A DNA stretch of 64,000 nt from Phycisphaerales bacterium (GCA_020639095.1 JACKHH010000005.1:56574-120573); one strand, 5' to 3'. Numbered from the stretch's first letter, positions 8,919 through 52,077 are shown. Translations and numbers: made by a program. The notes: generated by a model from the sequence alone, not told the origin.

Positions 8919-10015
8919 GACCTGTTCCCGAGATAGTCAAACACCTGGATGCGGTGATTCGCGGAATCCGCCACCCAGATTCGATTGTTTTCGTCGATCG
9001 CCAGACCTGCGGGCAGGGCGAACTTGCCCGCGGTGTTGCCTTCCTGGCCGAAGGCGATCAACAAGGCTCCATTCTGATTGAACACCTGTACGTTCTCGAA
9101 CTGCGCGTCAACAACGTACAAATGCCTGTCGCCGTCGAACGCGACGCCCTTGGGCAGCGCGAAGTCCCCGGCAGCGTCGCCCTTGCGCCCGATCGCGCCG
9201 ACGAAATTGCCGTCGAGATCGAGTAGCTGCACGCGGAAGTTCGCGGAATCCGCTACTGCGATGCGCTCCGCGCCGTCCCAGGCGATGTGCGTGGGGCGGT
9301 TGAACGCGCCTCCGTCATTGCCGGGCCTGCCGATGCGGCGAATCAGTCTACCCGACGGGCTGAAGACGACGATGTCATTCGTGCCGCCGTCGACGACGTA
9401 AAGCTGATCACGCGTCGCGACGTATGCCAAGCCCACCGGCCTGTCCAACACGTCCGCACCGAAACGATGCCGCATATCACCGGCTTCGTCAAACTCAAGC
9501 ACTTCGCGGCGCTTGGCATCGGTAACAAAGATGCGACTGCCCACGAAACAAGCGCCGATCGGCGCGCCCAAGCGCTGGTCTTCCCAGCCAGTGACGAGGC
9601 GGTGCGTTCGCTCCACCAGGTTCACAATGTGCACGCCCGCAACGCCGACGTCCGCAACCGCGAGCAAGGGGCCCTTGCGTGCGAGCGAATGCGGCGACGA
9701 AAACTTGATCGGGCGACGGTTGCCGCGAAGCGCGGCTTGAAACGCTTCGCCACCGGACTTGCCGGCTTCCAGGTCGTCGCTACCGCTCAGCACGCCGACA
9801 AAACGAATGCGTGCGGGCTCGGGCGGTTTCGGCCAGACGCGCGTTTCGCCGCGCTGGCTGAAGAGTTCGCCCTTGGGTTGCGCGCATCCGGTGAACAACG
9901 TTGCGGCCAATACCGCTGCGAAAGCCCTCGTTGTTCTCCGCTCCCTGACAGTCGCGGCTCGGATTTTGCTTGCTCCTGCGCGCATCTGTTTGAGATTAGT
10001 TCCGCGCCAGGACAT
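8915..10015 (-). CDS. NHL-repeat beta-propeller lipoprotein
   Basis: Lipobox LFTGCAQ. NHL blades (IFVTDAKRREVLEFD, LYVVDGGTNDIVVF, IAVADSANFRVQLLD, LYVVDAQFENVQVFN, IWVADSANHRIQVFD). Overlaps the end of the beta-barrel gene by about 20 nt. Contains one copy of the 35-nt repeat (9931-9965). Confidence 0.8.
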   Translation of the reverse strand: MSWRGTNLKQMRAGASKIRAATVRERRTTRAFAAVLAATLFTGCAQPKGELFSQRGETRVWPKPPEPARIRFVGVLSGSDDLEAGKSGGEAFQAALRGNRRPIKFSSPHSLARKGPLLAVADVGVAGVHIVNLVERTHRLVTGWEDQRLGAPIGACFVGSRIFVTDAKRREVLEFDEAGDMRHRFGADVLDRPVGLAYVATRDQLYVVDGGTNDIVVFSPSGRLIRRIGRPGNDGGAFNRPTHIAWDGAERIAVADSANFRVQLLDLDGNFVGAIGRKGDAAGDFALPKGVAFDGDRHLYVVDAQFENVQVFNQNGALLIAFGQEGNTAGKFALPAGLAIDENNRIWVADSANHRIQVFDYLGNRS

Positions 10016-12128
10016 TTTCGAAATCGCGCCTCAACCGGAAATACACACCAACGTCGTCTTCCTCGCTGCCGGGTACGTCCAAGCGGTCGTACTCCACCAC
10101 GAATTCCGCGGTGAGTTCGCCGATCGCGTAATCAAAACCAGCCGACACGTCCCACGCGTTCGTCGTGCCGCGCACCGAGTCGTCCTGCCAACGGTAGGTG
10201 ACGCGCTCAAACGACGAGAGGCTTTCACGCAGGTACCAGCGGTGGTCAAGCTGAAGGTCGAGCCATGACACGTTGCGCTGATCCACGCCGCCTTCAAAGA
10301 AGAAGCGCGAGAACCGCACGGACGCGTCGAGCGAATGTTCCGACGTCTGAATGAAGCGATATAGACCGTTGAGGTGGAAGGCGTCGAAGGGCTCGACGGT
10401 GTCGTCGTAGATTTCGTACTCCGCGCCCAGCGTATACTTGGGCTGCTCGTAGCGAATACCGATGCGGTGGTGGTTTGTGCGATCGGCGTAGCGGGCGAAG
10501 CCGCGTGAGTAATCGGCTTCCTGGTTGCGGTACGAGAGGCGATAGTACGGCGTCAAGCCGTTGTCGAAACGCTGTTCGAGGCTGAAGTCGACCCGCATGG
10601 TGTCGAGCTTGCCGTCGGCTGGCGTCGAGTATTCGTAGTCAATCAGAATCGTTTCGTCATCGAGAATGCGCCCGGTCGCGATGCGGGAAATCTGCGTCCA
10701 CTGGCCGACCGTGACAATGAGGTAGTCGCGCAATGGCTGATATACCCGGCGATTCGCGGAATCGGTGACCACGATCGTGCCCGGAATCACGTTCGCATGT
10801 CGCAGCGTGATCTGCGTCGGGCCGCGGAACGTGGCGGACTCATTGAGCACCACGCGCGAACCGTTGTCACCGTTGACATCCTCCGTGTCGTACGCCAGTG
10901 CGAGGTTCGCCCACAACTGACCGTAGGGATTCTTGCGGTTGTACTGCCAATCAATCAATGCACCGTACTGCGTCGTTTGCACGTCGTTGTCAATGTCCTC
11001 ATACAGCCCGAACACGTCGACGGTCGTGGTAAGGTTCGTATAAAGCTGATGAATAAGCTGGAAGTCGGCGCGGTGCGTCGAGATGTCGTAGGCTTCGTAT
11101 TTCTCGCGATTGAACTGGTAGCGGTAGATCGTTGAAAGGTTGTCGTTGTGCTTCAACGTCAACTGCGGGCCGATTTCGAAGATGTCGCGGGCGAAGTCGC
11201 CGCTCTCTTCCTGCCAACGCATCCGCGTCCACAATTCATTCGCGTCGTCGGTACCGAAGGTGAACCGATCGTCGACAATGATCAGGTCGCGCGTGGTTTC
11301 GTAGGCATCGCGCAGGCCCTGATATTCCTGCTTGTTTTCCGCGTGTTCATACGTCGCGTTGATCGTGTGGTTTCGCGAGACCGTCCAGTCGACGCCATAG
11401 TTCAGCGTGCTGTCGGTGTAGTGCTCGTCGTCGTAGCGATCGCGATTGCCCGTGCGGTCGGTTTCGAGGTAGTCGTACCGCAGGTGCATCGAGAGGTCGT
11501 CCGCCACGTAGCTCCAGTCGGTACCGAAGCCGGTCTGGCGTTCGTCGAGCGACGGCTGGAAGCGGCGATTGATGCGATCGTCGCGGCGGATGGCGTACAC
11601 CGAACCCGAAAGCGGTTTGCCCTGGAAGAAGTTCATCCGCGCGTCGTAGAGCAGCAGCGTTCCGCTGTCATCGTCGCTGTAGTCCGCGGTGGGGCTGCGT
11701 TCGGAAAAGTGACTTTGCGTCAGGGCAAAGCTGAGATCGGCTTGGAAGGTGATGAAGCTTGGGTCGATGATCGTTCCGCCAAGACCAAGGCCGAAGCGCT
11801 CTTCGATATTCACATCGCGATTGGTTTGTGACCACTGCCGCCGGCCTTGCCTGCGCTGGCGAAGCTCGGAACGCACGCGCGTCTGATCAAACTGGGTTTC
11901 GAGTTCGAGGTAGCCGTCGAGGCGGTCGAGTGAGAAGTAACGCGGGCGTTCGCTGTCGTTGACCTCGTCGCTTTCATCCTGCGCAGCCGCGGAGGTCGCT
12001 GCAATAAGCAGCGTTGCGACGAACAGTGAAAAAGGGAACCGAACGGGGTTAGACCGCATGCCCATGATCGCTGCGTGCATCACATTCCTTAGAGCCATGG
12101 TCCGCGCCAAACAGACTCGTAGCCGCAC
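9996..12128 (-). CDS. Outer-membrane beta-barrel protein (about 690-710 aa), porin-like component of a putative porin-cytochrome conduit
   Basis: Probable start at the internal Met (about 12059) giving signal MRSNPVRFPFSLFVATLLIAATSAAAQ. The rest is rich in alternating aromatic/polar residues (Y, W, D, T, R) with no long hydrophobic helices, as in large beta-barrels of MtrB/OmbB-like size. It is the first gene of the minus-strand cytochrome/NHL operon. Confidence 0.6.
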   Translation of the reverse strand: MRLRVCLARTMALRNVMHAAIMGMRSNPVRFPFSLFVATLLIAATSAAAQDESDEVNDSERPRYFSLDRLDGYLELETQFDQTRVRSELRQRRQGRRQWSQTNRDVNIEERFGLGLGGTIIDPSFITFQADLSFALTQSHFSERSPTADYSDDDSGTLLLYDARMNFFQGKPLSGSVYAIRRDDRINRRFQPSLDERQTGFGTDWSYVADDLSMHLRYDYLETDRTGNRDRYDDEHYTDSTLNYGVDWTVSRNHTINATYEHAENKQEYQGLRDAYETTRDLIIVDDRFTFGTDDANELWTRMRWQEESGDFARDIFEIGPQLTLKHNDNLSTIYRYQFNREKYEAYDISTHRADFQLIHQLYTNLTTTVDVFGLYEDIDNDVQTTQYGALIDWQYNRKNPYGQLWANLALAYDTEDVNGDNGSRVVLNESATFRGPTQITLRHANVIPGTIVVTDSANRRVYQPLRDYLIVTVGQWTQISRIATGRILDDETILIDYEYSTPADGKLDTMRVDFSLEQRFDNGLTPYYRLSYRNQEADYSRGFARYADRTNHHRIGIRYEQPKYTLGAEYEIYDDTVEPFDAFHLNGLYRFIQTSEHSLDASVRFSRFFFEGGVDQRNVSWLDLQLDHRWYLRESLSSFERVTYRWQDDSVRGTTNAWDVSAGFDYAIGELTAEFVVEYDRLDVPGSEEDDVGVYFRLRRDFENVLARN

Positions 12129-19916: not shown

Positions 19917-22859
19917 TTAGCGATAGGCTTCGATCATCGCATAGACGATCAGAACGACTAGCGTCAACCCGATCAGCAGGGCGGTGGCCCCGAATATCTT
20001 GATCACCCGCAACGCCAGCGGCGACGGCGGATCGACCATGCGTTTGTCCAACTGGCCGCTCTCGACCATCTGCTGGTATTCCAGCGGGCGTTCGTGCTTC
20101 AACTCCGCCAGTGGCATTCTGCCGGTGAAGATCACCGTGTCCATCGGGAACTTCTCCGGACGCAGATTCGCGTTGAAGAAGTGGATGGTGAAGATGAATC
20201 CCGTCGCGAGCAGCGCCTCGTCGCTGTGGATGATCGTCGCGACGTTGATCAGCCAACCCGGCAGCACGTACGTGAACACCTCGGGGAACCAGAGGAACAC
20301 ACCGGTTGACCCGATGATCGCGATACCCCAGAACACCGCGAAGTAGTCGAACTTTTCCCAATAGGTCCAGCGGCCGTAATCGGGTTTGGGACCTCGGCCG
20401 ATGAACCACTTCATCGTCGCGAAGAACTCGCCAATGTCGCTGAATCGCGGCACGATCGACTCAGGACCGAAGATAAACGACCAGAGCGTCTTACCGCTTT
20501 CGATGTAGCGCTTGCGCAGGTCCCAGAGGTGGAAGACGAACAGCGTGAACATCGCCACCGCGCAGGTGCGGTGAATGAAACCAGCCGACTCGAACCCGCC
20601 CAACGCACGCGAGAGCGCCACCGCCCAACGCGTATAGCTGAACTTGAGCATCATGCCGGTAATCGCGAGCCCAAAGAAGCTCAGGATCATCACCAGGTGC
20701 ATGATCCGCACCTTGGGGACGAAGCGCATGTACTGCTTTGTCGTGGTGATGGTCAGTGCAGCCTCGGCTTGGCGAAGTTCCTTCCGCATGCGCCACGACC
20801 GTGGCAACCAAATCAGCGTGTGCAGCCCGAAGAATCCAAACGTGCCCACCAGCAGCGTCGTCATGCCCCAGAAGGCGTAGTACAACGCGGGGTACTTCTT
20901 CGGATCGTGATGCGTGGCGTGTGTCAGGTACCCCGCGAACTGGCGATGTGCGCCCGGGTGACATTGGGCGCAGGTCGCGACGATGTTGTCATGACTCAGC
21001 CGCGACTTGGGATCGGTCACGCGCAGGATGTCGTGCGCGCCGTGGCAGTCCTGGCACTTCGCGGTCTCGGCTTCCCCGAGCAGCGACACCTTGCCGTGAT
21101 ACGTGTCGTTGAAGTACGACTCGGTCAATTCCTGGTGACACTTGCCACACTGATCCATGATCGACAGCTTGAAATCGTTCTCGTCGGTGCGCGAGATCGA
21201 GTGCGGCGAATGGCAATCATTGCAACGCGGCAGGGCAGACATGCCCTGAAGCTGCGTATACTCCGGGTTGCCCGTCGGCGAGTGTACGCTGGTCGAGTAC
21301 TTGTCGTAGATGCCGTGGTGACACTCACCGCAAGTGGCTGCGATGTGGTCGGGGTTCACGCTGGCGGCTGGGTCGCTCGCGGGCAGCGCGCGGTGCGCGG
21401 TGTGGCAGCTCGTGCACGTCGCGGTCACGGTGAGCCCGCTCTCGAGCAGACCCTTGCCGTGGATGCTCATCGTGTAGTTCTGGACGATGTTGTGCTGTTC
21501 TCCGAGGTAGCGGACGGCGGCTTTTCCGCCTTCGCGGTGACACTTTCCGCAAAGCGTGGGCACGTTGATCGCGAAGGTTGGCGATTCGCGTACTTTGGCT
21601 TGCAGGATGGTCGGCGCGTCGTCTTTGATGCTGTGCTCAAGAATGCCGTGCGTTCCGTGGCAATCGGCACAGGCGGGTGCGTTGGGATCACCCTTCGCGT
21701 GCAGCGTGCCGTGAACGCTCATCTCATAGTCTGATACCGCAGCTTCATGGCAAATGGCGCAATCGACCTTCTGTTCGAGCGAGGCACAGGGACGCGTCGG
21801 GTCCGACGGATCGACACCCGTGTGACACTGCGCACACGCAACAACCTTTCGCCCGTGAATCGACTCCGCGTACTCTTCCGGATTCACGAACAGCGATTTG
21901 CCATCGGCGGTCGCGACAAGTTCCGGATCGCGGTGGCAGTGCAGACAGTCCGCATTCGCAAGACCGGTGTCATACGATGCTTTGCGGGCTTCGTGTGGTG
22001 AGTGGCACTCGACGCAGTTGGGAATCTTGTTCGGTTCCTTCTCCCACATCGAGCCGCGAATGATCTTGCGGTGTACGTTCTCAATGATGCCGTGACACTT
22101 CATGCACGTCGCGGTTACGTTCTCCTTCGAGATCGACGACTTGGGATCGTCGTGCGGGAGCACGTGGTGGCCCGTGTGACAACTGGTGCAGACCGCCGTC
22201 ACCACGAGCCCCTGTTTGAACAAGCCCTCGCCGTGGATGCTCTGCGTGTAGCGTTTGAGAATCTGATCCTGCGGAATGTCGTACGCACGCTCGACCGGTG
22301 CGCCTTCCGCGTGGCACTGTGCGCACATCTGCGGGACGTTGAACGGGGCGACGGCTGACTTCGGATCGGACAGCGGGACGATGTAGTGGTTGCCGTGGCA
22401 ATCCTGGCAGCGCGGCGCGAGCGGGTCTTCTTCCTCAAGACGCTGGCCGTGAATGCTCTCCGCGAACTCCTCTGCCGCTTCGTCGTGACACATCGTGCAA
22501 TCGACGCGCGCGAGATCGAACTTGTGCGGTAGCTCGGTGTCTTCGAGATCCTCGTGGCAGGTCACGCAGTCGAGGTCGGCGTGTACCGACTTGTTGAACT
22601 GCTCGAGGTCAACGAACAGCGAAACCTGACGATCCCCGCGCGTGCCCACGAGATTGCGGTCGCGCCCGTGACATTCCAGGCAGAACGCGTTGTCCTGGGC
22701 GAAGGCTGAGTTCGTCGATGCAGTCAGCGCGACGACTACGGCAGCACACGCCAATTGACACGGGGTAAGTCGAAAAGCAGGGATCCGCATGGGCATCTCT
22801 TGCGCTGGTCGTGGTTGATACGTGCAACAGTACGGGCGAACGCGGCCCGGCGGTTGCAC
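19917..22859 (-). CDS. CbcL-like fusion protein: N-terminal 19-heme c-type cytochrome domain plus C-terminal diheme cytochrome b (HydC/FdnI-like) membrane domain
   Basis: Signal peptide. Nineteen CxxCH sites counted by eye. The C-terminal roughly 330 aa carry 5-6 TM helices with conserved His residues, as in cytochrome b subunits of formate dehydrogenase and hydrogenase. Overall architecture matches Geobacter CbcL, but with many more hemes. Confidence 0.75.
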   Translation of the reverse strand: MQPPGRVRPYCCTYQPRPAQEMPMRIPAFRLTPCQLACAAVVVALTASTNSAFAQDNAFCLECHGRDRNLVGTRGDRQVSLFVDLEQFNKSVHADLDCVTCHEDLEDTELPHKFDLARVDCTMCHDEAAEEFAESIHGQRLEEEDPLAPRCQDCHGNHYIVPLSDPKSAVAPFNVPQMCAQCHAEGAPVERAYDIPQDQILKRYTQSIHGEGLFKQGLVVTAVCTSCHTGHHVLPHDDPKSSISKENVTATCMKCHGIIENVHRKIIRGSMWEKEPNKIPNCVECHSPHEARKASYDTGLANADCLHCHRDPELVATADGKSLFVNPEEYAESIHGRKVVACAQCHTGVDPSDPTRPCASLEQKVDCAICHEAAVSDYEMSVHGTLHAKGDPNAPACADCHGTHGILEHSIKDDAPTILQAKVRESPTFAINVPTLCGKCHREGGKAAVRYLGEQHNIVQNYTMSIHGKGLLESGLTVTATCTSCHTAHRALPASDPAASVNPDHIAATCGECHHGIYDKYSTSVHSPTGNPEYTQLQGMSALPRCNDCHSPHSISRTDENDFKLSIMDQCGKCHQELTESYFNDTYHGKVSLLGEAETAKCQDCHGAHDILRVTDPKSRLSHDNIVATCAQCHPGAHRQFAGYLTHATHHDPKKYPALYYAFWGMTTLLVGTFGFFGLHTLIWLPRSWRMRKELRQAEAALTITTTKQYMRFVPKVRIMHLVMILSFFGLAITGMMLKFSYTRWAVALSRALGGFESAGFIHRTCAVAMFTLFVFHLWDLRKRYIESGKTLWSFIFGPESIVPRFSDIGEFFATMKWFIGRGPKPDYGRWTYWEKFDYFAVFWGIAIIGSTGVFLWFPEVFTYVLPGWLINVATIIHSDEALLATGFIFTIHFFNANLRPEKFPMDTVIFTGRMPLAELKHERPLEYQQMVESGQLDKRMVDPPSPLALRVIKIFGATALLIGLTLVVLIVYAMIEAYR

Positions 22860-22930
22860 CGGCCCGGTATCGTTGACGAATCCGCGCGATTTCGCAACCG
22901 CTAAATCACCGCCGGCGGCCCGTTCGCCGA

Positions 22931-24940
22931 CTAGTGCTCGTGCTCCTCTTCGTCGTGGCTTCCGAGCGCGTTGTCTTCAACTTCCTCTTCCAGACGCGGT
23001 CGAAACTTTCGGCCCTTGAGTCGCGGCCCATCGGGATGCTCGTGGTCGTACATCACCTTCGACATGCGCCCCGCAAGCCACGCGGTATTCATCGGGTAAA
23101 CCGTCGGTTTGAAGACGGTGTGGTAAACGTGCCAGACGAGAATCGCCAGCGTCGCGAGCCACGCTTCGTAGTAGTGAATCACGAGCATGACGTCGAGGAA
23201 GCCTTTCGGCAGGCCCAGGCGGTTGGCGAGATAGTCAAACCAGAGAAAGATGCCGGTGCCCGTCATGATGATTGTACCCCAGACGAGCGCCCAGTATTCC
23301 GCCTTCTCCATGTAGCTGAAACGCTTGTACTTCGGCTCTTCCGCGCGGAGGCCGAGGAAGTACAGCGAGTTTTGCCAAACGTGGGTGAAGTCGGACATCG
23401 CCAGCACCATGTCGCGCACCCAATGACGCCCGCGGTGCGTGAACATGTAGAACAGGTGCCAGATCGACGTCGCCGTCATCACCACGGCGGCTCCACGATG
23501 AATATCACCGCGAATCTCGAATCCGCCTTCCCAACCAAAGATCAGCCGGGACCACCACGATTCCGAGAAGCGCAACGAGAAGCCGGTGATTACCAGTACG
23601 ATGAACGACACCATCAGCGCCCAGTGCTGCATCACTTCGTTCATGCTCAGGCGCTGCACGTGGGGGAGTTTCTTCGCGTCGCGCACCTTGCGGAACCAGT
23701 CGCCGATGTTGTGCAGCAACATCAAGCCGATCGTGGCCACGATGAGTACGATGTACAGCTTGCGGAAGAACTCCGCCCAACCAGTGTGCAGACCGGCACC
23801 GGTTTCGTGAATCTTCGTCTGAGCAAGGTCCTCGGTGATGCCCGGGTGACACTTGCCGCAGGTGTGCCGCAGGTTCGACGCGTTAATCGATGACGTCGGG
23901 TCGGTGGAAGGCAGGATGCGGTGCGCGCCGTGGCACGACGAACAGTTCGCCACTTTGAGGTCACCGGCTTTGCTCTTCAAACCGTGATAGCTGTCGATGT
24001 ACGACGCCAAGCGCCCGCCCGGCAAGCCGAATTTCTCATTGAGCACCGCCGATTCGTGGCAGGGGGCGCAGGTCTGCTCAGCAACGTGCGTGGGGCTGAC
24101 TGGCGAATTGGGATCGTCCGGCGGAATGATGCCATGCTCGCCGTGACAGGTGGTACACACCGGGGCAGCCATTTCGCCGCGTGCGACGAACTGCCCGTGG
24201 ATGCCTTCCCAAAAATCCCGCGATATCGGCTTGTGACATTTGCCGCAGGTGTCGGGAATGTTGAAGTGATACGTCGTCGATTCGGGGTCGCGCGGCGAGA
24301 GGATACGGTGCGCACTGGGCGCGCCGTCCGGGCCGGGCGATGAGTGGCAATCGTTGCACGTCGCGGAAAGGTAGATGCCTTTCTCCGTCGTGGCTTGGCC
24401 GTGTACGCTGCTTTCGTACATCTCGACCGGGCCGGCGCGCAGCACCTCGTGCTTGGCCAGCATGTTCAGGTTCGTATGGCACTTCAGGCACGTCTTCGGC
24501 AGGTTCACCGGGTGTACGCGCGAACGCTGATCCGCCACCGGCAGAATGTCGTGGTGACCGTGGCAATCCCAGCATTCGGGGATGTCGGGGTCGGTGTGAA
24601 CTTCGAGGCGACCGTGCTTCTTGTAGACCTCGGATTCGTCTTCGTGGCACTCCGCGCAGCCAATCAACTGAATGTCGCCGTGCGGGTGTTCGGATTCGAG
24701 GTTGACGTTGTCGGCGTCGATGTCACCGTGGCAGTCGTCGCATGACAGGTCGGAGTGAATCGACTTCGCGAGCAATTCCGCCGGCGGGCCGATCTCACGC
24801 GAAACCGCCTGGCTGTGGCACTTCGCGCAGCCTTCCAACTCCTGCTCCGGCTCGGCGAAAACCGGAGCGGCGAGGATGAGGGTCAGGATGATGGCTGGGG
24901 GAATCCATCGCGGGGAATGACGCAACTTCAAAAGGCTCAT
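22931..24940 (-). CDS. CbcL-like fusion protein: 11-heme c-type cytochrome domain plus C-terminal cytochrome b membrane domain
   Basis: Signal MSLLKLRHSPRWIPPAIILTLILAAPVFA. Eleven CxxCH sites. The C-terminal TM-rich domain is paralogous to that of the 19917-22859 protein. Acidic His-rich C-terminal tail (HDEEEHEH). Confidence 0.75.
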   Translation of the reverse strand: MSLLKLRHSPRWIPPAIILTLILAAPVFAEPEQELEGCAKCHSQAVSREIGPPAELLAKSIHSDLSCDDCHGDIDADNVNLESEHPHGDIQLIGCAECHEDESEVYKKHGRLEVHTDPDIPECWDCHGHHDILPVADQRSRVHPVNLPKTCLKCHTNLNMLAKHEVLRAGPVEMYESSVHGQATTEKGIYLSATCNDCHSSPGPDGAPSAHRILSPRDPESTTYHFNIPDTCGKCHKPISRDFWEGIHGQFVARGEMAAPVCTTCHGEHGIIPPDDPNSPVSPTHVAEQTCAPCHESAVLNEKFGLPGGRLASYIDSYHGLKSKAGDLKVANCSSCHGAHRILPSTDPTSSINASNLRHTCGKCHPGITEDLAQTKIHETGAGLHTGWAEFFRKLYIVLIVATIGLMLLHNIGDWFRKVRDAKKLPHVQRLSMNEVMQHWALMVSFIVLVITGFSLRFSESWWSRLIFGWEGGFEIRGDIHRGAAVVMTATSIWHLFYMFTHRGRHWVRDMVLAMSDFTHVWQNSLYFLGLRAEEPKYKRFSYMEKAEYWALVWGTIIMTGTGIFLWFDYLANRLGLPKGFLDVMLVIHYYEAWLATLAILVWHVYHTVFKPTVYPMNTAWLAGRMSKVMYDHEHPDGPRLKGRKFRPRLEEEVEDNALGSHDEEEHEH

Positions 24941-27883: not shown

Positions 27884-28054
27884 TATGCCTCCGTCGTGTC
27901 ACGCAACCAAACGCAGCACACCAAGGGAGCCGCGCCGGAAAGAAAGCGGAATCCGAGCCGCGACTGTAAGGGAGCGGAAGAACAAAGAATGCCCGCAACA
28001 GCAGGACAAGTCAAAACAATCGAGAGACGCGCATTCAATGCGCGGAATGAAACC

Positions 28055-29743
28055 CTATCCGAACCGCCGCGCCGCGAGAAACGTCCGCGCACGCTCGACT
28101 GAGTATAAGCGGTCGCCTTCCTGCAAGCTGTCGATGCGCACTTCCGGTGGGCCGCTGTGCATGAAATGCGTAGGGGTAATTGCTACACCGACGTGGTAGA
28201 TTCGCCCACAGTTGTTGATGAAGTAGAGCAGGTCGCCGGGTGCGATCGCGTCGGGATTCCACCGCGTCGCCACCAGTCTGCCGCTAAGGAATTGCTGGCC
28301 CGCGTCACGCGGCAGAGCGAGCCCGCTGCGCAAGCTCGACTTCTGCGCGAGCCCGCTACAGTCCAGACCGATCGGTGATACCCCGCCATAAATGTATGGA
28401 ACGTGCAGCAATTCCAGGGCGGCAGAGATGCGTGCTTCGCCGTTGCGCGACGCATCCTGAATACGCACGTCCCGCGCGCCGACTTCGAGCGGGTCGTCGT
28501 GGGGATGCGTCAGGAGCATGCGCGCATCCGCTTCGCGCGCGATGGGCAGAACGGCTCCTCGTGGAATCCGCCTGCCCCCCAGATCGATATCACGCTGTAG
28601 TACCGCCCTTCGCGTCGCGGTGTAGGGCGCAAAGTCGGCTGCGGTGAGTATTCGCAAACGCTCCTCGCGCACCCAGCCCCAGTAGCCGTCGTCGCCGTGA
28701 ACGAGCAGGAACCCGTCTTTGTGATCGAGCAGGAGGACGGGTTCGCCATAGAGCAGTTGCGAACGCAGGCCAGCCGATTCGGACGGCGCGGCGTAGGTGA
28801 GCGCCATGCTTGCCAAGCATACGGCGAACCGCTCGCCGTTGAGTGCGCCGTCCTCCGGCAGCAGTCGAAGCTCGTTGATGACATTCTCGATGCCCACGCA
28901 GCGCAGCGCGTCGGCGAATGTGTCACGCAGCAGTGCGACGTTGGTTGCGCCGGCAATACGGACGGTGTCGCCTTCAACGGTGACATTAGGTTGGCAGTAA
29001 ACGAACGTGCGATCGGAAAACACCGTGCGGACAAAGGTGTCGCAGAACCACGCGGCGTATTCGATCGGCAGCTTGCCGTGCGGCCAGACACGCTCAGCCG
29101 TTTCCTGCATTTCCTGTTCCGGCGTGCGATCGACGAAACGCGGCACGGGTGTTGCGCTGGGGGAGGCGTGCGGCGTTGCGGCAGCCTGTTTCTGCACAAA
29201 GGCAATCATGCCGCGACAAACCGCCTCCGCGACCTTCTGCGGGATGAGACGTGTTTTTACTTCGCAAGCTTCCGCAGCCGTTGCGGTGATGGCGATACCG
29301 GTGGGCGCGGAGTTAGCTCGCAAGGATACATCGGGTAGGGCGTCAATCGTGTGGAATGCGTCGACGATCGCGGATTCGAGCGGCGACGATTGCGTGCTTC
29401 CGATTCGTGCTTGGACGGTGCACGTGAATTGTGTGTTGTCGGATGGCTCGGATTGGGAAAAGGTAATATCGACGACGACATCATTGCTTTCCGCTCCCTT
29501 ACAGTCGCGGCTCGGATTGTCGTCCGCGCGTGTCATGATGGGGATGCCGCCCGCTTGTTGCGTGAAGTGAAAGAGCACGCCCGCGGTCATGAGCGAAAGG
29601 TCATCAAGTCGCCGTTGCGCCGCGTCATGTGCTCCGCCGCCATTTGCGTCGATCACCACGACTTGTCCGCGCAGCGCATCCGCCTGCGGTCGCCAGGGCC
29701 GCACGTAGGTTTCGATCACGCGTTGAACGTTTTTCGTATCCAT
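28055..29743 (-). CDS. NlpC/P60-family cell-wall peptidase with a long N-terminal extension (possible amidase-like and SH3-like segments)
   Basis: C-terminal NlpC/P60 catalytic signature (LDCSGL...GDLLYF...HVGVAI). Likely starts are ATG 29743 (MDTKN) or 29800 (MPRAV). The 5' part of the track ORF (to 29941) lies in a structured non-coding region. Contains one copy of the 35-nt repeat at 29483-29517. The N-terminal VVVIDANGGG segment is only weakly amidase-3-like. Confidence 0.6.
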   Translation of the reverse strand: MDTKNVQRVIETYVRPWRPQADALRGQVVVIDANGGGAHDAAQRRLDDLSLMTAGVLFHFTQQAGGIPIMTRADDNPSRDCKGAESNDVVVDITFSQSEPSDNTQFTCTVQARIGSTQSSPLESAIVDAFHTIDALPDVSLRANSAPTGIAITATAAEACEVKTRLIPQKVAEAVCRGMIAFVQKQAAATPHASPSATPVPRFVDRTPEQEMQETAERVWPHGKLPIEYAAWFCDTFVRTVFSDRTFVYCQPNVTVEGDTVRIAGATNVALLRDTFADALRCVGIENVINELRLLPEDGALNGERFAVCLASMALTYAAPSESAGLRSQLLYGEPVLLLDHKDGFLLVHGDDGYWGWVREERLRILTAADFAPYTATRRAVLQRDIDLGGRRIPRGAVLPIAREADARMLLTHPHDDPLEVGARDVRIQDASRNGEARISAALELLHVPYIYGGVSPIGLDCSGLAQKSSLRSGLALPRDAGQQFLSGRLVATRWNPDAIAPGDLLYFINNCGRIYHVGVAITPTHFMHSGPPEVRIDSLQEGDRLYSVERARTFLAARRFG

Positions 29744-30569
29744 CTTGCCTACTTCTTTGTGAGACACTTGATCCTCATGCGCAACAACTGCGCGGGGCAT
29801 GATACCGCGCCGCGCGAGCGTCGCCCAACAGGCGGTATCGGCGTGCCAGCCCGCGTCATCGCGCGTTGCGAATCGCCGTATTTTCAGGGGACAAATGTGA
29901 TTTATACTTGACACCTTCCTGCGTTGAGGTATATTTCCCAAACACGTCGCGTTGGGCGGCGTGCATGTGTAGTGGAGGTTGCCATAGTGGCTACCCGTCA
30001 GCTCGACATTTTCAAAAGCAGCCGGCGAAACGAATGGCTCGCGCTATCGCTGATAAGCGGTGGGCTCATGCCGTTGGATTCCGCGTGCGGAATCACGTTC
30101 GCCCATGACGGGCCTCCCGGGTAGTGTGCAATTGTTTTTTGCCCATCCACCCCGGAGGCGCTTGCGACAGCGGCCTGCGGGGTTTTTTGTTGCGCATGTC
30201 TTTCCGCGTAACCCCTGACGGTCTCTTCGGTTAGCGATCGTATTGAACCGGTTGCAGTTGGTACGCGTGTCGATTGCCGGGGCTGTTGTGTCCCGATGCG
30301 ATGCGCGGACGGAGAAGGTGCGCGCATGTGTGCCACTGCTCTTGAGCAGTGGGACATGTCACAGAGCGTCGCTGCGTATCGCGTCCACTGCTCAAGAGCT
30401 GTGGCACAGGGTACGTCTCGCTCGCATGGAGAAAAGTCAATCCGCGCACGCGTTGCGCGGCGGCCTGAAGGATATGTCGGTTGTCGTACCGGCGGTGTGC
30501 GTGGGCATCGTTCGCTCGATTTGCTCGCGTACGTTCCGCGTGACGGGGTCTGAAGCGACAACGTAGCAT

Positions 30570-30645
30570 GTGTGAGAAGCTCAATGGTCGAGCAACACGA
30601 CTTAGGATCGTGCTGGTGCGGGTTCGAATCCCGCCTCAAACACCA
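30570..30645 (+). tRNA. tRNA-like gene (76 nt, encoded CCA). Anticodon loop reads UAG (Leu), but the variable loop is short like a class-I tRNA and there is a G3:A70 mismatch. Possible pseudo-tRNA or tRNA-derived attachment site
   Basis: Manual cloverleaf: acceptor GTGTGAG/CTCAAAC with one mismatch, D-stem GCTC/GAGC, anticodon stem CACGA/TCGTG with loop CTTAGGA, 5-nt variable loop, T-arm GCGGG-TTCGAAT-CCCGC, discriminator A, CCA. Confidence 0.45.
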
Positions 30646-31439
30646 ACCCGGAGTCGTCCCCCCGCCCCGCTCAGTCAACCGGCTGGTCGAGGCGGGGGGA
30701 TGACTCGCCCGGCGAATAGCCGGGACGGCGTAAGCCGCTACCGAGCCTTGGCGGGGAGAGTGCTTCGTCGCGTCGCCGGTTGTCCCGATCGCACCGTATG
30801 GGCTGCATCATCAGCCCGTGCGCCACGACGGGCGACACCGTCGAAGCGGTTCGAGCGAACGCGGATACCGCCGAGTCAAATCGCCAATCGTGCGATCTCG
30901 CGTCAGACGGAAAGCAGACGCGAGTTCGCACGAACGGCGGTCACTGACCCGGCTTAAGCGTTCGCCCACCGCGTTCCGCGGGGCGATGCGAGAGAAGGCT
31001 CTCCTCGTCGGGCAGCGGCGGCGAACGCGTTGAGCGACATGACACTGAATCGGGAAAGCAGAATAGGGATTTACGAAATAGCAGGATGGCAAACTCCTCC
31101 CCCTCTGGGGGAGGGCAGGGTGGGGGTAGTCAGCGAAAGTGTTCTTGAGTCAAAGACTCCTCCGCCGACTCAGAAACTGCATCGGTTCACGCGAAGTCGT
31201 CGCGCTTTGCAACGGCTTCGCTTGATGCCCTCCCCTTGCCCCTCCCGGAGGGCGGGGAGTTGGACCGTCCTGGCTATGTGGGGAAAGACCAATCCTGGTC
31301 GCGAATGCAGGCAGGATGCCTGCACCACAATACAGAACCCCGGGCGTCTAGTCCGGGGCGGAACAAACAGTGACGTCTCGACGTCGGGACGCACATGAGT
31401 TTGCATGAGCCCACGCGCTCGAGAAAGGAGGTTATATCC

Positions 31440-42818: not shown

Positions 42819-42997
42819 TCCGCGGGGATTATAAGAGGACACCTGCATATCCTCAACGCGATGCTGGGACGGCTGGTGGGAGAGCGCCAAGTGTGCCACT
42901 GCTCTTGAGCAGTGGAGTCGATGGCGAGTGGGCCGCACAGATCATGACCACTGCTCAAGAGCAGTGGCACGCGGAAGCATGATCACTGGAACTGCGA

Positions 42998-43888
42998 CTA
43001 CAGAATGCCCTGCTCCGCACCCAACACATACCCCATGATGCGGTACGCGACGCGGGCTGCCAGGAACTCGGTGACGGCTTGGCCAGGAATGGGCATTACT
43101 TCGACGACGTCAGCCGCGACGATCTTCTTCGTCTTCGCGACCGCACGCAGCATGCGCATCACCTGATACCACTCCAGCCCGCCGGGAACCGGTGTGCCCG
43201 TACCGGGTGCGTATGCCGGGTCGAACCCGTCGATGTCCACAGTGACGTAGACCTTGTCGCCGAGCGTTTCGATCACCTGCCCGATCCAATCGTCGGACCG
43301 CGCACACTCCGCGGCCATGATCGGGGTGATACCGGCCTTTGGCATGAACTCGAGTTCTTCCGCGCACACGTTGCGGATGCCGACGGGCACGAGCTTCTCA
43401 GCGTGTTCGAGACAGCGGCGCATCACGCTGGCGTGCGACCACTTGGAACCCTGGTAGCTGTCGCGCAGGTCGAGATGCGCGTCGAGTTGCAGAATGGAGA
43501 TCTTCCCCTCGCGTTCCGCGACTGCCCGCACCAGTCCCGACGTCACGCCATGCTCACCGCCAAATCCGAACAGGAACTTGCCATCGGCCACCACCTTTTT
43601 GGCAGCGGCATAGATGGCTTCATGCGTCTCGTGTGGATCGCCCGAGGGGGCAATAACCGGCGGCAGGACGGCAATACCCGATTCGCACGGGTAGGTGCCG
43701 AGTTCCTCGTCGTAGTCTTCAAGATGGTCGGATGCGGCGATGATCGCATCCGGTCCGCGGCGCGTGCCCGATTGAAAACTGACGGTCGCGTCGTAGGGGA
43801 TTGGCAGAATCGCAAATCGCGCCGGTGCGTAATCGCTAAGCGGCGGTTCCAGACAGCAAAACGAATGGCGCGACGAGGATTCGTTCAT
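42998..43888 (-). CDS. speB: Agmatinase (ureohydrolase/arginase family)
   Basis: Mn-binding signatures DAHLDLRD and VTVDIDGFDPAYAPGTGTP. Lies next to a pyruvoyl-dependent arginine decarboxylase gene. Confidence 0.7.
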   Translation of the reverse strand: MNESSSRHSFCCLEPPLSDYAPARFAILPIPYDATVSFQSGTRRGPDAIIAASDHLEDYDEELGTYPCESGIAVLPPVIAPSGDPHETHEAIYAAAKKVVADGKFLFGFGGEHGVTSGLVRAVAEREGKISILQLDAHLDLRDSYQGSKWSHASVMRRCLEHAEKLVPVGIRNVCAEELEFMPKAGITPIMAAECARSDDWIGQVIETLGDKVYVTVDIDGFDPAYAPGTGTPVPGGLEWYQVMRMLRAVAKTKKIVAADVVEVMPIPGQAVTEFLAARVAYRIMGYVLGAEQGIL

Positions 43889-44706: not shown

Positions 44707-46173
44707 TTGCCACCACACACCTACGAAATCTGGTCGCTCGTTCCGCCGGTCCTAGCCATCACGCTGGCCATCGCAACGCGCCAGGTGTTCCTCTCGCTCT
44801 TTGCGGGAATCTGGGTGGGATATCTCGTCATCGCACAGTGGAATCCCTTACTCGCCAGCGTGGAGGCGCTTGAAGCGTGCGTTGCGGTCTTCAAGGACCA
44901 CGGCAACACGTGCGTGATCCTTTTCTCCGCGATGGTTGGGTCGTTGATCGCCGGCGTGCAGCGGAGCGGGGGCGTTGACGGGTTTGTGCAGTTCGCCCAG
45001 ACGTCACGAATTGTACGCGGGCGGCGCAGTGCCGGACTGCTCGCGATGGCGGTGGGCATGGCCACCTTCATCGAGTCGAGCATCGTGTGCCTGGTGACCG
45101 GTGCGGTGGCCAGACCGATCTTCGACAAGCTGCGGATGTCACGCGAGAAGCTTGCGTACGTTTGCGACACCGTGTCCGCGCCCACGTGCGTGATGATTCC
45201 GCTGAACGGGTGGGGGGCGTTCGTGCTGGCCCAGCTTGTGGCGTCGGGGTTGGTTGATGATCCCGTGCCGCTGCTCGTCCACGCGGTGCCGCTGAACTTC
45301 TACGCCATCACCAGCCTTGTCATGCTGTTCGTCGTGCTCGTGACGGGCTGGGACATCGGGCCGATGCGCGAAGCCGAACGCCGTGCCCGCGAAGAGGGCA
45401 AACTGCTCCGCGACGGCGCCAAGCCCATGATCACCGACGAGGTGCTCGCGATGCCGCCCGAGCCCGGCGTGACGCCGCGGGCACACAATATGATTCTGCC
45501 CATCGCGGTGATGGTCGCGATGGTGCCTGTCAGCTTGTACTACACCGGCGTCACCAGTCTCGAGCCGGGCACTCCGCGCGAGTTCTGGAATATTCTGCGG
45601 GCGTGTTCCGGAAACACTTCGGTGTTCTATGCGGTGACAACTGCCGTCGTCTTCGCCGGGGCGCTCTACCGCTTGCAGGGCATCATGACGGTCAAGGAGT
45701 ATGTGGACGTTGCGATCAAGGGCGCGTCAGCGCTGGTACCGCTGGCGCTGCTGATGGTCTTCGCGTTCGCCATTGGCCACCTCTGTCGCCACGAACTGCA
45801 CACCGGTGATTACGTCGCGTCGGTGATTGGGAAAGGCATGCCCAAGTGGCTGGTGCCGGGCGCGGTGTTTGCGATCTCCTGCTTTATTGCTTTCTCCACG
45901 GGCACGAGCTTCGGCACGTTCGCGATCATGTTGTCGATCGCACTGCCCGTGGCGGACACGATCGGTGTCCGCATGGACCTGGTCGTAGCCGCTGTCCTTG
46001 GTGGCGGGGTCTTCGGCGACCACTGCTCGCCAATTTCCGACACCACTATCGTATCATCCATGGCCTCAGCATCCGACCACATCGACCACGTCAGAACACA
46101 ACTACCCTACGCACTAATGGCCGGGGGCATCGCGCTGGTTCTGTATTTATTGGCAGGAATCGCACTCGTTTAG
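44707..46173 (+). CDS. Na+/H+ antiporter NhaC-family transporter
   Basis: Polytopic membrane protein of 488 aa with NhaC-like sequence. Non-ATG (TTG) start in the track. The exact start is uncertain. Confidence 0.6.
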   Translation: MPPHTYEIWSLVPPVLAITLAIATRQVFLSLFAGIWVGYLVIAQWNPLLASVEALEACVAVFKDHGNTCVILFSAMVGSLIAGVQRSGGVDGFVQFAQTSRIVRGRRSAGLLAMAVGMATFIESSIVCLVTGAVARPIFDKLRMSREKLAYVCDTVSAPTCVMIPLNGWGAFVLAQLVASGLVDDPVPLLVHAVPLNFYAITSLVMLFVVLVTGWDIGPMREAERRAREEGKLLRDGAKPMITDEVLAMPPEPGVTPRAHNMILPIAVMVAMVPVSLYYTGVTSLEPGTPREFWNILRACSGNTSVFYAVTTAVVFAGALYRLQGIMTVKEYVDVAIKGASALVPLALLMVFAFAIGHLCRHELHTGDYVASVIGKGMPKWLVPGAVFAISCFIAFSTGTSFGTFAIMLSIALPVADTIGVRMDLVVAAVLGGGVFGDHCSPISDTTIVSSMASASDHIDHVRTQLPYALMAGGIALVLYLLAGIALV

Positions 46174-46284
46174 CGGCGACCCGAAGGGGAGCGCGTGTTT
46201 GGCGCTACCGCGTACTTTGCCACGGTCATCATTGATCAGAGGTATGACACCGTTATCGTTAGTGCGTAGTGATCATTGAACGCA

Positions 46285-47050
46285 CGCTCGCGTTCCGCTC
46301 GCCGCTAAACGTGGGTTTGTGGGGACAAGTGGCGGTCGGCGAATCAATCGAATCGGGCCACGAATGACCATTCTTGACGGCGCTTCCCCTCTTTGATTGG
46401 GTTTTGTGTTACATAGTCGATTGCGGTACGTAGTGCCGCTTCGCTGTTGAGGAACACACGCCAATGCCCGCGCGACCACATGCGTGGTGGCAGGTCACCT
46501 GAGTCTCCTCCGAATTCAGCGAGCGGGTGAACTCGCTCACGGGTGACCTGCTTTGTGGCTGCGGCTTTTGCCAGATTGATGATTTGTTCAACGCTATAGC
46601 GGTGTCGCGCGACAACCAAGTGTACGTGTTCGGGCATAATGCTGCATGCCCAGACAACCACCCCTGATTTCGCGAAGTAAGCGGCGAATCCGCGAGCAAT
46701 CGCACGCGCTTGCACGCCGGTCCAGGTGACCGGTGGATATCGCAAGGATTGCTTTGCACGAAGGCGCAGTTTGTGATCGTGCTCTTTTCCGGCTTGGGAT
46801 TGCCGCGTCCTCGCGACCTTGGCCGGCCCAAACTTTCGAAGCTCCCAGCAGCGAACGAAGTCGGACCATGACCCCCGAGGATCGTTAGGCAGCCAAAACC
46901 CGTACGCGCCAAGGATGACGTGATATCCGAGCACCATGATAAAGGACCCGCGGATACACCGTGCCACAGGCAATAGCGTTCATCGGCGCCCAGAATGGGG
47001 ACATTCTGATCGCGCCATACGCGCTCGCGTTCCGCTCGCCGCTAAACGTG
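46285..47050. mobile_element. Putative IS200/IS605-like or RAYT-associated unit: Y1 transposase gene bounded by 29-bp perfect direct repeats
   Basis: CGCTCGCGTTCCGCTCGCCGCTAAACGTG occurs at 46285-46313 and at 47022-47050. The only gene between them is the HUH transposase. A hairpin GTGCGT-(12 nt)-ACGCAC lies just left of the left copy. Confidence 0.5.
46344..46937 (-). CDS. Y1 (HUH) tyrosine transposase, IS200/IS605-family / REP-associated (RAYT-like)
   Basis: HUH motif HVHLVV and a downstream catalytic Tyr region. ATG at 46937 (MVLGYHVIL...). The track start at 46973 is a TTG. Confidence 0.7.
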   Translation of the reverse strand: MVLGYHVILGAYGFWLPNDPRGSWSDFVRCWELRKFGPAKVARTRQSQAGKEHDHKLRLRAKQSLRYPPVTWTGVQARAIARGFAAYFAKSGVVVWACSIMPEHVHLVVARHRYSVEQIINLAKAAATKQVTRERVHPLAEFGGDSGDLPPRMWSRGHWRVFLNSEAALRTAIDYVTQNPIKEGKRRQEWSFVARFD

Positions 47051-48126: not shown

Positions 48127-48503
48127 GGCAGGTGTGAGGCTTGTTGGTTAGGCTTGAGGCTTGAGACCTGAGGCTTGAGGAGAAGGGTACGCGTCACCGC
48201 GGGTGGACTGACAAGCTCTGCTTGTCAGTGGGACGTAGAACGAGTGGCGTCAATCGTAGAGTCCATGGACAAGCAAAGCTTGTCCATGCCACCCGACCAA
48301 TACAAATGCGCAATGAGAAGAGAATCAGAACCCCGGGCGCCAAGCCCGGAGCAAATAGCAGGAAATCTCAAGGCAACAAGAAGACGCGCCGACCGCCATC
48401 CCTACAAGCCTCAAGCCTCAAGCCTCAAGCCTCAAGCCTCAAGCCTCAAGCCTCAAGCCTCAAGCCTCAAGCCTCAAGCTTCAAGCCTCAGACCTCAAGC
48501 CTC
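48127..48503. repeat. Complex structured repeat, copy 1: inverted blocks of a 9-nt tandem repeat flanking a roughly 225-nt palindromic core
   Basis: Left block GAGGCTTGA-type units at 48127-48178. Core with palindromes CTGACAAGCTCTGCTTGTCAG (48208-48228) and CCATGGACAAGC-AAA-GCTTGTCCATG (48263-48288), plus the CCCCGGGCGCCAAGCCCGG hairpin. Right block of about 11 units of GCCTCAAGC at 48405-48503, the reverse complement of the left block. Confidence 0.8.
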
Positions 48504-48942
48504 GCCCCCCCCGGCGACGCAGTGTCACCACCGCAAGCACAACGCCCGCCCCCAGCGCATCCGCCACGAAGTCCTCAATGTCGCGATGCCTGCCCGACAG
48601 CGGTTGCAGTATCTCCGTCAGCGCGCCAAAGGCCGCGAAGATCGCCCACCAGCGCAGCGCCCACGCGCGCGTACACGTCTCACCCGCCGACCGCCGCGCG
48701 AGCGCGCCCAAGTACGCAAGGATCGCAAACGTCGTAAAGTGAACAACCAGGCCCTTTTTCGAAATGACAATCGGTGGACGCGGCACCTTCGGCGAGAGCA
48801 GCAATCCCGTCAGCGTGACCCAGTACACCGCCCACGCCGCGACGATCAGGCGATGCCAGCGAATCAACAACGGCTGGTGACCAACATCGGGCGAGTCAGT
48901 CACGCCGCGCTCCGCTCGTGGCTGGTTCTTCCTCGTAGACAA
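48481..48942 (-). CDS. VanZ-like family membrane protein
   Basis: Four TM helices and the VanZ-like pattern (LTEILQPLSGRHRDIEDFVADALG). The C-terminal codons run into the 9-mer tandem repeat. Overlaps the parA-like gene's 3' end. Confidence 0.5.
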   Translation of the reverse strand: MSTRKNQPRAERGVTDSPDVGHQPLLIRWHRLIVAAWAVYWVTLTGLLLSPKVPRPPIVISKKGLVVHFTTFAILAYLGALARRSAGETCTRAWALRWWAIFAAFGALTEILQPLSGRHRDIEDFVADALGAGVVLAVVTLRRRGGRGLRSEA

Positions 48943-50149: not shown

Positions 50150-50351
50150 CGGTCATCCCTTACCGATTCGGGGCAGGATTTCCCAGCAGCCGGAGGGTGT
50201 CCGTAATCGAATCGACCGTCGCCGGAGATTTCGCCCAAGCTGCCTATTCTGCGAGGATCATATCGCACGCAGGCGACGAGGTGAAGGAGGAATTCGCAAG
50301 CAAGGTGCGGGGTTGTGAGTTTTGATGGTAAGACGTGCCGTGAAGGCGTGA

Positions 50352-50620
50352 GGCTTGAGACCCGAGGCTTGAGAAGTAAGAGACGCGCTGTCGCGGGCGG
50401 CACTGACAAGCTCTGCTTGTCAGTGGGGCGAAGAACGAGTGGCGTCATGTGTTGAGTCCATGGACAAGCAAAGCGCGTCCATGCCACCCGAGCTATTCGA
50501 CTATTGCGTTGGGAGGAGAATCAGAACCCCGGGCGCCAAGCCCGGGGCAATTGGCACGAAACCTCAAGGCGAAGTGAAGACGCACTGACCACAACCTACA
50601 AGCCTCAAGCCTACAACGTC
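50352..50620. repeat. Complex structured repeat, copy 2 (shorter paralogue of 48127-48503)
   Basis: Shares GTGAGGCTTGAGAC...GAGGCTTGAG, CTGACAAGCTCTGCTTGTCAG (50403-50423), GAACGAGTGGCGTCA, TCCATGGACAAGCAAAGC, GAATCAGAACCCCGGGCGCCAAGCCCGGGG, and the terminal CAAGCCTCAAGCCTACAA with copy 1. Confidence 0.8.
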
Positions 50621-50874
50621 AGAAGCGCATCGATCAGATCTTCGTCCTCGATGCCCAGGTCGTGATATGCCGCACGCTTCTCGTCTTCGGAGAGCGTATC
50701 ATCGGCTGCGATGGCTTCGAGATCGTCCAGCACATAGATCTGCCCGTTCTCGCCGGTCTCGGCATTGTCGAAGTCCGGGTTGCGGGCGGTGAATACACCG
50801 CAGCCAGTCGGCAGCAGAGCGAGCCCGCCAAGGAGGCAAAGGGTGGCCAGTCGATTCCAGGTCATGGGCTTCAT
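50611..50874 (-). CDS. Small acidic lipoprotein (about 87 aa)
   Basis: ATG at 50874 (MKPMTWNRLATLCLLGGLALLPTGCG lipobox). Acidic C-terminus. The track start at 51060 is an extension. Confidence 0.5.
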   Translation of the reverse strand: MKPMTWNRLATLCLLGGLALLPTGCGVFTARNPDFDNAETGENGQIYVLDDLEAIAADDTLSEDEKRAAYHDLGIEDEDLIDALLTL

Positions 50875-51805: not shown

Positions 51806-51956
51806 GGCTTATCCCTCTGCGGAATCCGGCGTAGCAAGAAACCCAAATGCGATTGTACCCACGATCGTGGCAATGCAACCTCTCCCGCCAGGTAAAATCC
51901 ACATCACGAGGCCGGGGGTGCGACAGCACCCGCTTTCCGCGCAGCGGCCTAGGCCG

Positions 51957-52077
51957 GGGCTTCAGCCCCGGTGAAGCGCTATCCATCAAAGCCTGTGCCC
52001 CGCCGTAGGCGGCGAGGCGGCGGGGGCAGGAGAGGCAGGCAGGCCGCACCCAACCGGCAAACGCCCGGCCTAGGCCT
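51957..52077. repeat. GGCCTAGGCC-containing hairpin element (long inverted repeat with internal sub-hairpins). A related copy lies at about 63263-63330
   Basis: GCGCAGCGGCCTAGGCCGGGGCTTCAGCCCCGG ... CCCGGCCTAGGCCTGCGCG. A second locus reads CCGGGGCTAAAGCCCCGGCCTAGGCCGGCCCTTCAAGGCCGG. Confidence 0.55.

Follow-up and report, generated by a model that had tools for sequence, protein, structure and literature searches.

Paired palindromes in a Phycisphaerales genome as probable REPINs of a RAYT-associated repeat family dispersed in Phycisphaerae

Two intergenic loci in a 64,000-nt stretch of DNA from a Phycisphaerales bacterium (the whole of which we call the window) each carry a pair of short palindromes separated by a spacer of the same length. 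Such an arrangement raises the question of what kind of element the pairs represent. A preliminary description of the region offered three possibilities: a site pair for a dimeric DNA-binding protein or recombinase, a BIME-like REP doublet, or a minimal two-repeat CRISPR-like unit. Our analysis favours the second, and we put at about 90% the probability that both loci are REPINs, head-to-head REP dimers with their tags outward, of a REP/RAYT system. The REP (repetitive extragenic palindrome) family itself, a short repeat of the selfish type, is dispersed in genomes of the Phycisphaerae (Planctomycetota), where it is associated with a REP-associated tyrosine transposase (RAYT), an HUH/Y1 enzyme.

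Two oriented doublets in the window

The first palindrome of locus 1, at 30333-30352, reads CCACTGCTCTTGAGCAGTGG and is perfect, while its partner at 30385-30404, CCACTGCTCAAGAGCtGTGG, has one mismatch, at 30400. Perfect copies also lie at 42896-42915 and 42948-42967, and all of the palindromes that the preliminary description had reported (30333-30352, the near-identical 30385-30404, and the pair within 42896-42967) were thus found in place. Their form is CCACTGCTC-WW-GAGCAGTGG, a stem-loop of 20 nt with a 9-bp stem, which falls within the 20-40 nt expected of the short palindrome of a REP. A search of the window that tolerated up to three mismatches returned exactly these four copies, where 0.02 would be expected (100 dinucleotide shuffles), and no weaker copies were found when these were looked for across the 64 kb.

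In both doublets the spacer is exactly 32 nt, and the palindrome centres are 52 bp, or about five helix turns, apart at both loci. The spacer sequences, which had been described as unrelated, share 9/32 identities in direct and 12/32 in reverse-complement orientation (shuffle p = 0.2, not significant); the notion that they are diverged copies of each other was dropped for want of significant similarity in either orientation. The palindromes are flanked differently on their two sides. GTG/CAC borders each copy on its outer side alone; on the inner sides the sequences are GAC, CGT, AGT and TGA, and the two central bases are TT in the left copies and AA in the right copies. The repeated unit is therefore asymmetric and oriented, and each doublet is an inverted rather than a direct repeat, laid out as GTGTG-CCACTGCTC-TT-GAGCAGTGG, 32 nt, and the reverse complement of that unit. 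The whole doublet measures 78-82 nt with terminal inverted repeats of 23-25 nt (Table 1).

Table 1. Components of the two doublets, in positions of the window, and the repeat unit
Feature	Position	Strand	Description
REP unit, left arm of REPIN 1	30328..30352	+	tag GTGTG at 30328-30332, then perfect 9-bp-stem palindrome CCACTGCTC-TT-GAGCAGTGG
Spacer of REPIN 1, 32 nt	30353..30384	.	GACATGTCACAGAGCGTCGCTGCGTATCGCGT; loop of the long hairpin; not conserved
REP unit, right arm of REPIN 1	30385..30409	-	CTGTG followed by CCACaGCTCTTGAGCAGTGG on the - strand; stem mismatch at 30400
REP unit, left arm of REPIN 2	42891..42915	+	tag GTGTG at 42891-42895, then perfect palindrome
Spacer of REPIN 2, 32 nt	42916..42947	.	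AGTCGATGGCGAGTGGGCCGCACAGATCATGA; no significant similarity to the spacer of REPIN 1
REP unit, right arm of REPIN 2	42948..42972	-	perfect palindrome, inverted; tag GCGTG on the - strand
Repeat unit			GTGNNCCACTGCTCWWGAGCAGTGG-type

As single-stranded DNA, either strand of each doublet is predicted to fold into one long hairpin with a stem of 23-25 bp and the spacer as its loop (-29 to -34 kcal/mol; z = -6 to -9). A search of the whole window against Rfam at gathering thresholds, and around locus 1 at E <= 1, gave a tRNA-Leu as the sole real match. Matches of the doublet to plant and animal miRNA models were set aside as chance long-hairpin similarity.

On one side of REPIN 1 (30328-30409) an NlpC/P60-family gene starts on the minus strand (28055-29941), and on the other lies this tRNA gene, tRNA-Leu(TAG), at 30570-30645. 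Locus 1 had been placed about 165 nt upstream of a tRNA-like gene, in non-coding DNA, which agrees well with what we find: the tRNA gene begins 162 nt past the end of the locus, and the ORFs that overlap REPIN 1, one of which also overlaps the tRNA, match no Pfam family. REPIN 2 (42891-42972) lies 28 nt past the stop codon of a minus-strand gene of the arginase family (42998-43888) and is immediately upstream of a promoter-like site (42856-42828) that precedes thiS-thiG, with the ThiS domain beginning after the REPIN. All four REP units in the window are thus intergenic. The thiG region has 75% DNA identity to a Phycisphaerae MAG, its best nucleotide relative among the fetched loci. No T-run follows the hairpin of REPIN 2, which is therefore not an intrinsic terminator. 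The window copies are probably passive residents, although the transcript hairpin of REPIN 2 could conceivably stabilise or end the arginase-family mRNA.

This neighbourhood has other features too. A strong sigma-70-like promoter match (TTGACA-16-TATATT, 11/12) lies on the plus strand at 29908-29935 and is followed, about 250 nt on, by a GC hairpin that has a T-run (CCCCGGAGGCG...GCCTGCGGGGTTTTTTG, about 30150-30192). The interval 29908-30192, which has no Rfam or Pfam match, may hold a small transcript or ORF, placed between REPIN 1 and the NlpC/P60 gene.

The window also contains several other repeats. A composite repeat, about 450 nt long, occurs twice (48150-48510 and 50344-50623; 79-89% identity) and consists, in order, of AGGCTTG heptamers, a palindrome ACTGACAAGCTCTGCTTGTCAGT, 34 nt, a palindrome CATGGACAAGCAAAGCTTGTCCATG, a GC hairpin CCCCGGGCGCCAAGCCCGGGG and about 14 CAAGCCT heptamers; these tandem CAAGCCT heptamers are inverted relative to the AGGCTTG set, and the whole is another paired-palindrome architecture. 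Its GC hairpin CCCCGGGCGCCAAGCCCGGGG is found again at 31333-31359. A dispersed repeat of 30-38 nt, AATCCGAGCCGCGACTGTAAGGGAGCGGAA, has three copies (9937-9974, 27941-27979 and 29489-29518), two of which, 1.5 kb from each other and around or within the region of the NlpC/P60-family gene, are a perfect inverted pair. A GC-rich, hairpin-type inverted pair of 28 nt, CGGCCTAGGCCGGGGCTTCAGCCCCGGT, lies at 51945-51972 and 63269-63296, 11 kb apart and 96% complementary. Finally, the plus strand carries, at 21000-24750, repeated coding motifs that end in GTGGCAGTCCTGGCA-type sequence; read on the opposite strand, they resemble a series of CxxCH haem-binding motifs from putative multihaem cytochrome genes.

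The repeat in related genomes

We scanned one genome per species (GTDB representatives) with the pattern CCACTGCTCWWGAGCAGTGG. At least 102 stretches carry the 20-mer, from at least 39 assemblies (species-level genomes), and almost all of the matches listed bear the label Phycisphaerae, Phycisphaerales or Planctomycetota; the list does not include the window itself. Several assemblies give many loci, and the motif had no match in 2.9 million viral contigs. One listed locus (L025, CAIWXY010000074.1) comes from a MAG labelled 'uncultured actinobacterium' among otherwise planctomycete matches and is possibly a mis-binned contig. Like the copies in the window, those elsewhere tend to avoid genes: in the three loci with gene calls (L105, L106 and L107) 23 of 23 REPs are outside called genes, and for the loci without gene calls a crude test based on stop-free ORFs indicated partial depletion from long ORFs (43% vs 80%).

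An alignment of 154 copies from many genomes, oriented by their loop, defines the unit closely. There is essentially no variation in the 20-mer, and ahead of it stands a 5' tag in which G is conserved in 76%, T in 64%, G(-2) in 96%, T(-1) in 94% and G(0) in 95% of copies, whereas the matching 3' positions after the palindrome are not conserved. The unit is thus an oriented 25-mer, gtGTG followed by CCACTGCTC-TT-GAGCAGTGG, and the left arm of REPIN 1 fits this consensus (gtGTG, then CCACTGCTCTTGAGCAGTGG). A one-ended, unpaired tag, here a GTG conserved to 94-96%, is a defining feature of REPs. The preliminary description had extended the repeat to a palindrome of about 26 nt (GTGCCAC...GTGGCAC); this extension does not stand, given the outer-side-only GTG/CAC in the window and the unconserved 3' positions.

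REPINs are defined as two REPs on opposite strands less than 130 bp apart (bioRxiv 10.1101/2021.07.10.451892), and both window loci have this arrangement, as do 29 of the 48 pairs less than 150 nt apart in other genomes, in which a TT copy is followed by an AA copy (inverted, tags outward). The other close pairs comprise eight direct ones (six AA-AA and two TT-TT), a single inverted pair with tags inward, and ten that include variant-loop copies. In 50 of the 102 listed loci there is a single copy.

Spacer lengths in the related genomes range from 8 to 107 nt. The fixed 32-nt geometry of the preliminary description consequently holds for both doublets of the window and fails in the related genomes, where the many copies and variable spacing that it had given as the sign of generic REP elements are what is found. 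Two independent draws from the cross-genome distribution would have equal spacer length with a chance of about 6%. A metagenome scan for a doublet with the exact 32-nt spacing gave only two matches, neither of them from the organism of the window and both with spacer sequences that differ from those of the window. In JAZDKM four spacers of 14 nt, and in L062 two near-identical spacers of 54 nt, have both length and sequence in common, as expected if a doublet is copied as a unit. The spacers of JAJDEA (25, 25 and 27 nt) have approximate length alone in common. Since the window spacers lack significant similarity, recent unit-wise copying of a doublet is unsupported by the two doublets of the window.

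The same data bear on whether each locus might be a minimal CRISPR-like repeat-spacer-repeat unit. A repeat of 20-25 nt with a spacer of 32 nt is within CRISPR dimensions, and the spacers do differ between the loci. However, the repeats are inverted, with tag and loop mirrored, neither window doublet extends into an array, and the spacing elsewhere is anything but uniform. The preliminary description had suggested comparing the spacers with phage sequences; a search with both against 50,697 phage records returned only chance-level matches of 18-19 nt (E = 0.3-0.9), and the motif, as noted, is absent from the viral contigs. The gene with which the repeat is associated, moreover, is a Y1 transposase-like gene that it flanks, not a cas gene. 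We regard the chance that the loci are CRISPR-like as next to nil, and read them instead as REP doublets.

A RAYT gene flanked by the repeat

A REP should flank a RAYT gene. When all ORFs up to 2.5 kb from a repeat were clustered across the 102 listed loci, the top cross-locus family had a median distance to a repeat of 7 nt and the motifs HxH...PEHVHVL...YIHxNP. It matches the NCBIfam model NF047646, 'REP-associated tyrosine transposase', with 99.8 and 96.8 bits (cutoff 80) and Pfam Y1_Tnp, while the IS200 transposase model NF033573 gives it 17-22 bits (cutoff 55). In three loci (L023, L065 and L092) the RAYT gene is bracketed by REPs, tags outward, at 13-16 nt from the coding ends, and in three more (L005, L034 and L024) RAYT gene fragments adjoin REPs.

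The reciprocal test gave the same picture. A protein search with the RAYT found 2,295 cluster-level homologues (E <= 1e-20), those with names being 'transposase [Phycisphaerales bacterium]' and most clusters sitting on one contig. Three loci (L105, L106 and L107) were fetched through the RAYT protein alone, not the repeat, and all three have the REP on both sides of the gene, 12-15 nt ahead of its start codon and 5-15 nt past its stop codon. The same REP thus adjoins the RAYT gene in nine related loci, usually on both sides. In L106, a tandem cluster of 11 REPs (10568-11043) lies downstream of the RAYT; its canonical units alternate with a variant, gtgtgCCACTGCTTTCAAGCAGTGC, at spacings of about 21-24 nt, as BIME-like heterodimers.

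The protein has the features of a Y1/HUH enzyme: the HUH motif and the Tyr of YI(H)xNP, the catalytic residues, are invariant in the RAYT alignment, and its sole relative in the PDB is E. coli TnpA_REP (4ER8), which aligns over both catalytic motifs (E = 2e-4). Taken with the inverted tagged pairs and the many genomes in which they occur, the REP-flanked RAYT bears out the suggestion of a BIME-like REP doublet.

The 64-kb window holds no cognate RAYT. The only Y1-type gene there, at 46344-46973, was considered as the partner and rejected: it has about 25-30% identity to the REP-flanked RAYTs, falls below the NCBIfam cutoff and has a different flanking repeat. This gene, a distant Y1/RAYT-like one, is on the minus strand and encodes 209 aa, with scores of 23.6 bits for Pfam Y1_Tnp and 49 bits for NCBIfam REP_Tyr_transpos (cutoff 80). 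A 30-nt repeat of its own, ACGCGCTCGCGTTCCGCTCGCCGCTAAACG, lies on either side of it, at 46279-46311 and 47019-47048, and a further, inverted copy is found at 46167-46199; gene and repeat together resemble the 'TIR-associated' Y1 transposases of PMC3733652. Both it and the gene in L079 (about 30% identity) are distant Y1 paralogues that this REP does not flank, which argues that the association of REP and RAYT is specific.

The next ORF cluster near the repeats was sigma-70/ECF-like, in four loci. Planctomycetes carry many ECF sigma factor genes, and we therefore judged this association to be chance.

The neighbourhoods also weigh on the proposal that the palindromes form an operator pair for a dimeric transcription factor, or a site pair for a site-specific recombinase, on the same helix face with centres 52 bp apart. 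Perfect 20-bp palindromes, the same centre-to-centre distance at both window loci and the position of both in intergenic DNA near promoter-like sites would all suit it. Such sites would not, however, be expected to lie at partner spacings of 8-107 nt in related genomes, or in clusters of up to 11-12 copies beside a RAYT; the neighbouring genes over the 102 listed loci are unrelated, RAYT aside, and RAYT is the only recurrent neighbour within a few nt. The one-sided GTG tag and the strand-specific TT/AA loop likewise describe a single-strand hairpin substrate rather than a symmetric duplex operator. This part of the preliminary description is accordingly very improbable.

A further explanation is that the doublets are MITEs of a conventional DDE-type insertion sequence, with the palindromes as terminal inverted repeats. 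A unit of 78-82 nt with terminal inverted repeats of 23-25 nt, dispersed in intergenic DNA, has just this outline. No target-site duplication is visible at either window copy, though, where the flanking bases read CGCAT/GGGTA and GCCAA/GGAAG; units often occur alone (about half of the listed loci have one copy) or in head-to-tail pairs, and the sole gene bracketed by the repeat encodes a Y1/HUH enzyme. All this makes a DDE origin extremely improbable, and leaves REPINs of a RAYT-associated family as the reading that we follow here.

By analogy with E. coli TnpA_REP and the IS200/IS605 enzymes (PMC3479197), the RAYT would bind the REP hairpin and its unpaired 5' tag in ssDNA, for example at a replication fork, and would then cleave and rejoin nearby ssDNA, so that REP doublets could be copied or maintained at new intergenic sites. 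Enzymes of the Y1/HUH type bind ssDNA hairpins, a tetranucleotide at the 5' foot of the hairpin being essential for both binding and cleavage, and TnpA_REP cleaves ssDNA and transfers strands (PMC3479197). On the same analogy the spacer would be a mere hairpin loop, free to diverge, which fits an equal spacer length without detectable spacer similarity.

It is also possible to suppose that the host has co-opted the repeats, as RNA hairpins that stabilise or end an upstream transcript or as sites for a nucleoid protein or gyrase, with the RAYT only maintaining them. Binding of nucleoid protein and gyrase has been proposed for the REP/BIMEs of E. coli. One pointer in this direction is that the 25-mer is nearly invariant in at least 39 species, where the REP-associated RAYTs diverge to 57-63% identity, which suggests purifying selection on the repeat; this conservation could equally reflect the recognition requirements of the RAYT. 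The position of REPIN 2, shortly past the arginase-family stop codon and just before the thiS promoter-like site, and the very stable folding of both doublets speak for a host role as well. On the other hand, a hairpin that lacks a T-run is not an intrinsic terminator, and REPIN 1 is at the 3' end of no recognised gene. We think a host role rather unlikely; it overlaps with the REPIN explanation, and the two are not mutually exclusive.

Relation to known REP systems and implications

The arrangement is much like that of the REPIN-RAYT systems described by Bertels and Rainey in Pseudomonas fluorescens SBW25 and others (PMC3116915, PMC5581495, bioRxiv 10.1101/2021.07.10.451892). There, as here, short palindromic REPs lie inverted less than 130 bp apart, the doublets are extragenic, with conserved arms and a variable spacer, and fold into one hairpin, and the REP of the doublets also flanks a RAYT gene, whose product has the HUH and Tyr motifs. 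The differences are that the host is a planctomycete (Phycisphaerae) and not a proteobacterium, and that the doublet is short (about 80 nt), with each REP a perfect palindrome with a 9-bp stem.

With the REP/BIME elements of E. coli and TnpA_REP (4ER8; PMC3479197), the family has in common an oriented hairpin whose foot bears an unpaired, conserved 5' tag, the occurrence of inverted pairs, and an enzyme that aligns at the HUH (PEHVH / PEHMH) and Tyr (YIHxNP / YIYINP) motifs. The tag, however, is GTG(TG) here and GTAG there, the overall similarity of the proteins is weak (E = 2e-4), and the defined linker motifs of BIMEs are absent. Further, the stem has neither mismatch nor bulge, one of which is essential for binding by E. 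coli TnpA_REP (PMC3479197).

The GTAG and CGTC super-families of REPs (Di Nocera et al. 2013, PMC3733652) offer a broader comparison. Head-to-head dimers with the tags outside are their commonest arrangement, and such dimers predominate here too; stems of 6-9 bp, a tag at one end, families common to several species, and spacers (20-100 bp in the super-families) that are sometimes equal in length and different in sequence are further points of likeness. The tag, by contrast, fits neither GTAG (GYAG, GYRG, GTRG, GTMG, GTGG) nor CGTC, the four bases before the stem being TGTG, or GTGC if the weak outer C-G pair is left out. With this tag and no stem mismatch, the element is not placed in either super-family. 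IS200/IS605 elements, finally, also pair a Y1/HUH enzyme with single-stranded (subterminal) hairpins and a short 5' guide-like sequence (PMC3479197), but the enzyme here scores as a RAYT (NF047646, 97-100 bits) and not as an IS200 transposase (NF033573, 17-22 bits, cutoff 55), and the left and right ends are the same repeat.

What appears to be new is the exact repeat, a search for which in the searchable literature returned unrelated eukaryotic primer and gene matches only; a literature search on Phycisphaerae and palindromic repeats likewise found nothing relevant. That REPs occur in the PVC superphylum is known (PMC3733652), and an NCBIfam model exists for the protein. The conservation of the 25-mer in so many species alongside a diverging RAYT is mildly notable.

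The result matters mainly for annotation: those who annotate Phycisphaerae genomes should mask these palindromes or label them as REP/REPIN, and not read them as operators, regulon-specific terminators or CRISPR remnants. To our knowledge, nearly all work on REP/RAYT systems has concerned Proteobacteria. A 25-mer that recurs in dozens of species of planctomycetes, and whose stem is perfect and tag is not GTAG, adds a data point on the age and stability of such systems, and the family would be a convenient substrate for testing hairpin recognition by RAYTs. We tentatively suggest, while considering it doubtful, that the family is a third kind of tagged REP, neither GTAG nor CGTC, whose tag is GTG(TG) and whose hairpin is perfect and free of bulges, in an ancient and vertically inherited partnership with its RAYT; its 25-mer would have been kept almost unchanged throughout a class of Planctomycetota, in at least 39 species with RAYTs as low as about 57% in identity. 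If this were true, it would mean that such a REPIN-RAYT partnership exists outside the Proteobacteria, and that its mode of hairpin recognition differs from the one used by E. coli TnpA_REP, for which a stem mismatch is required.
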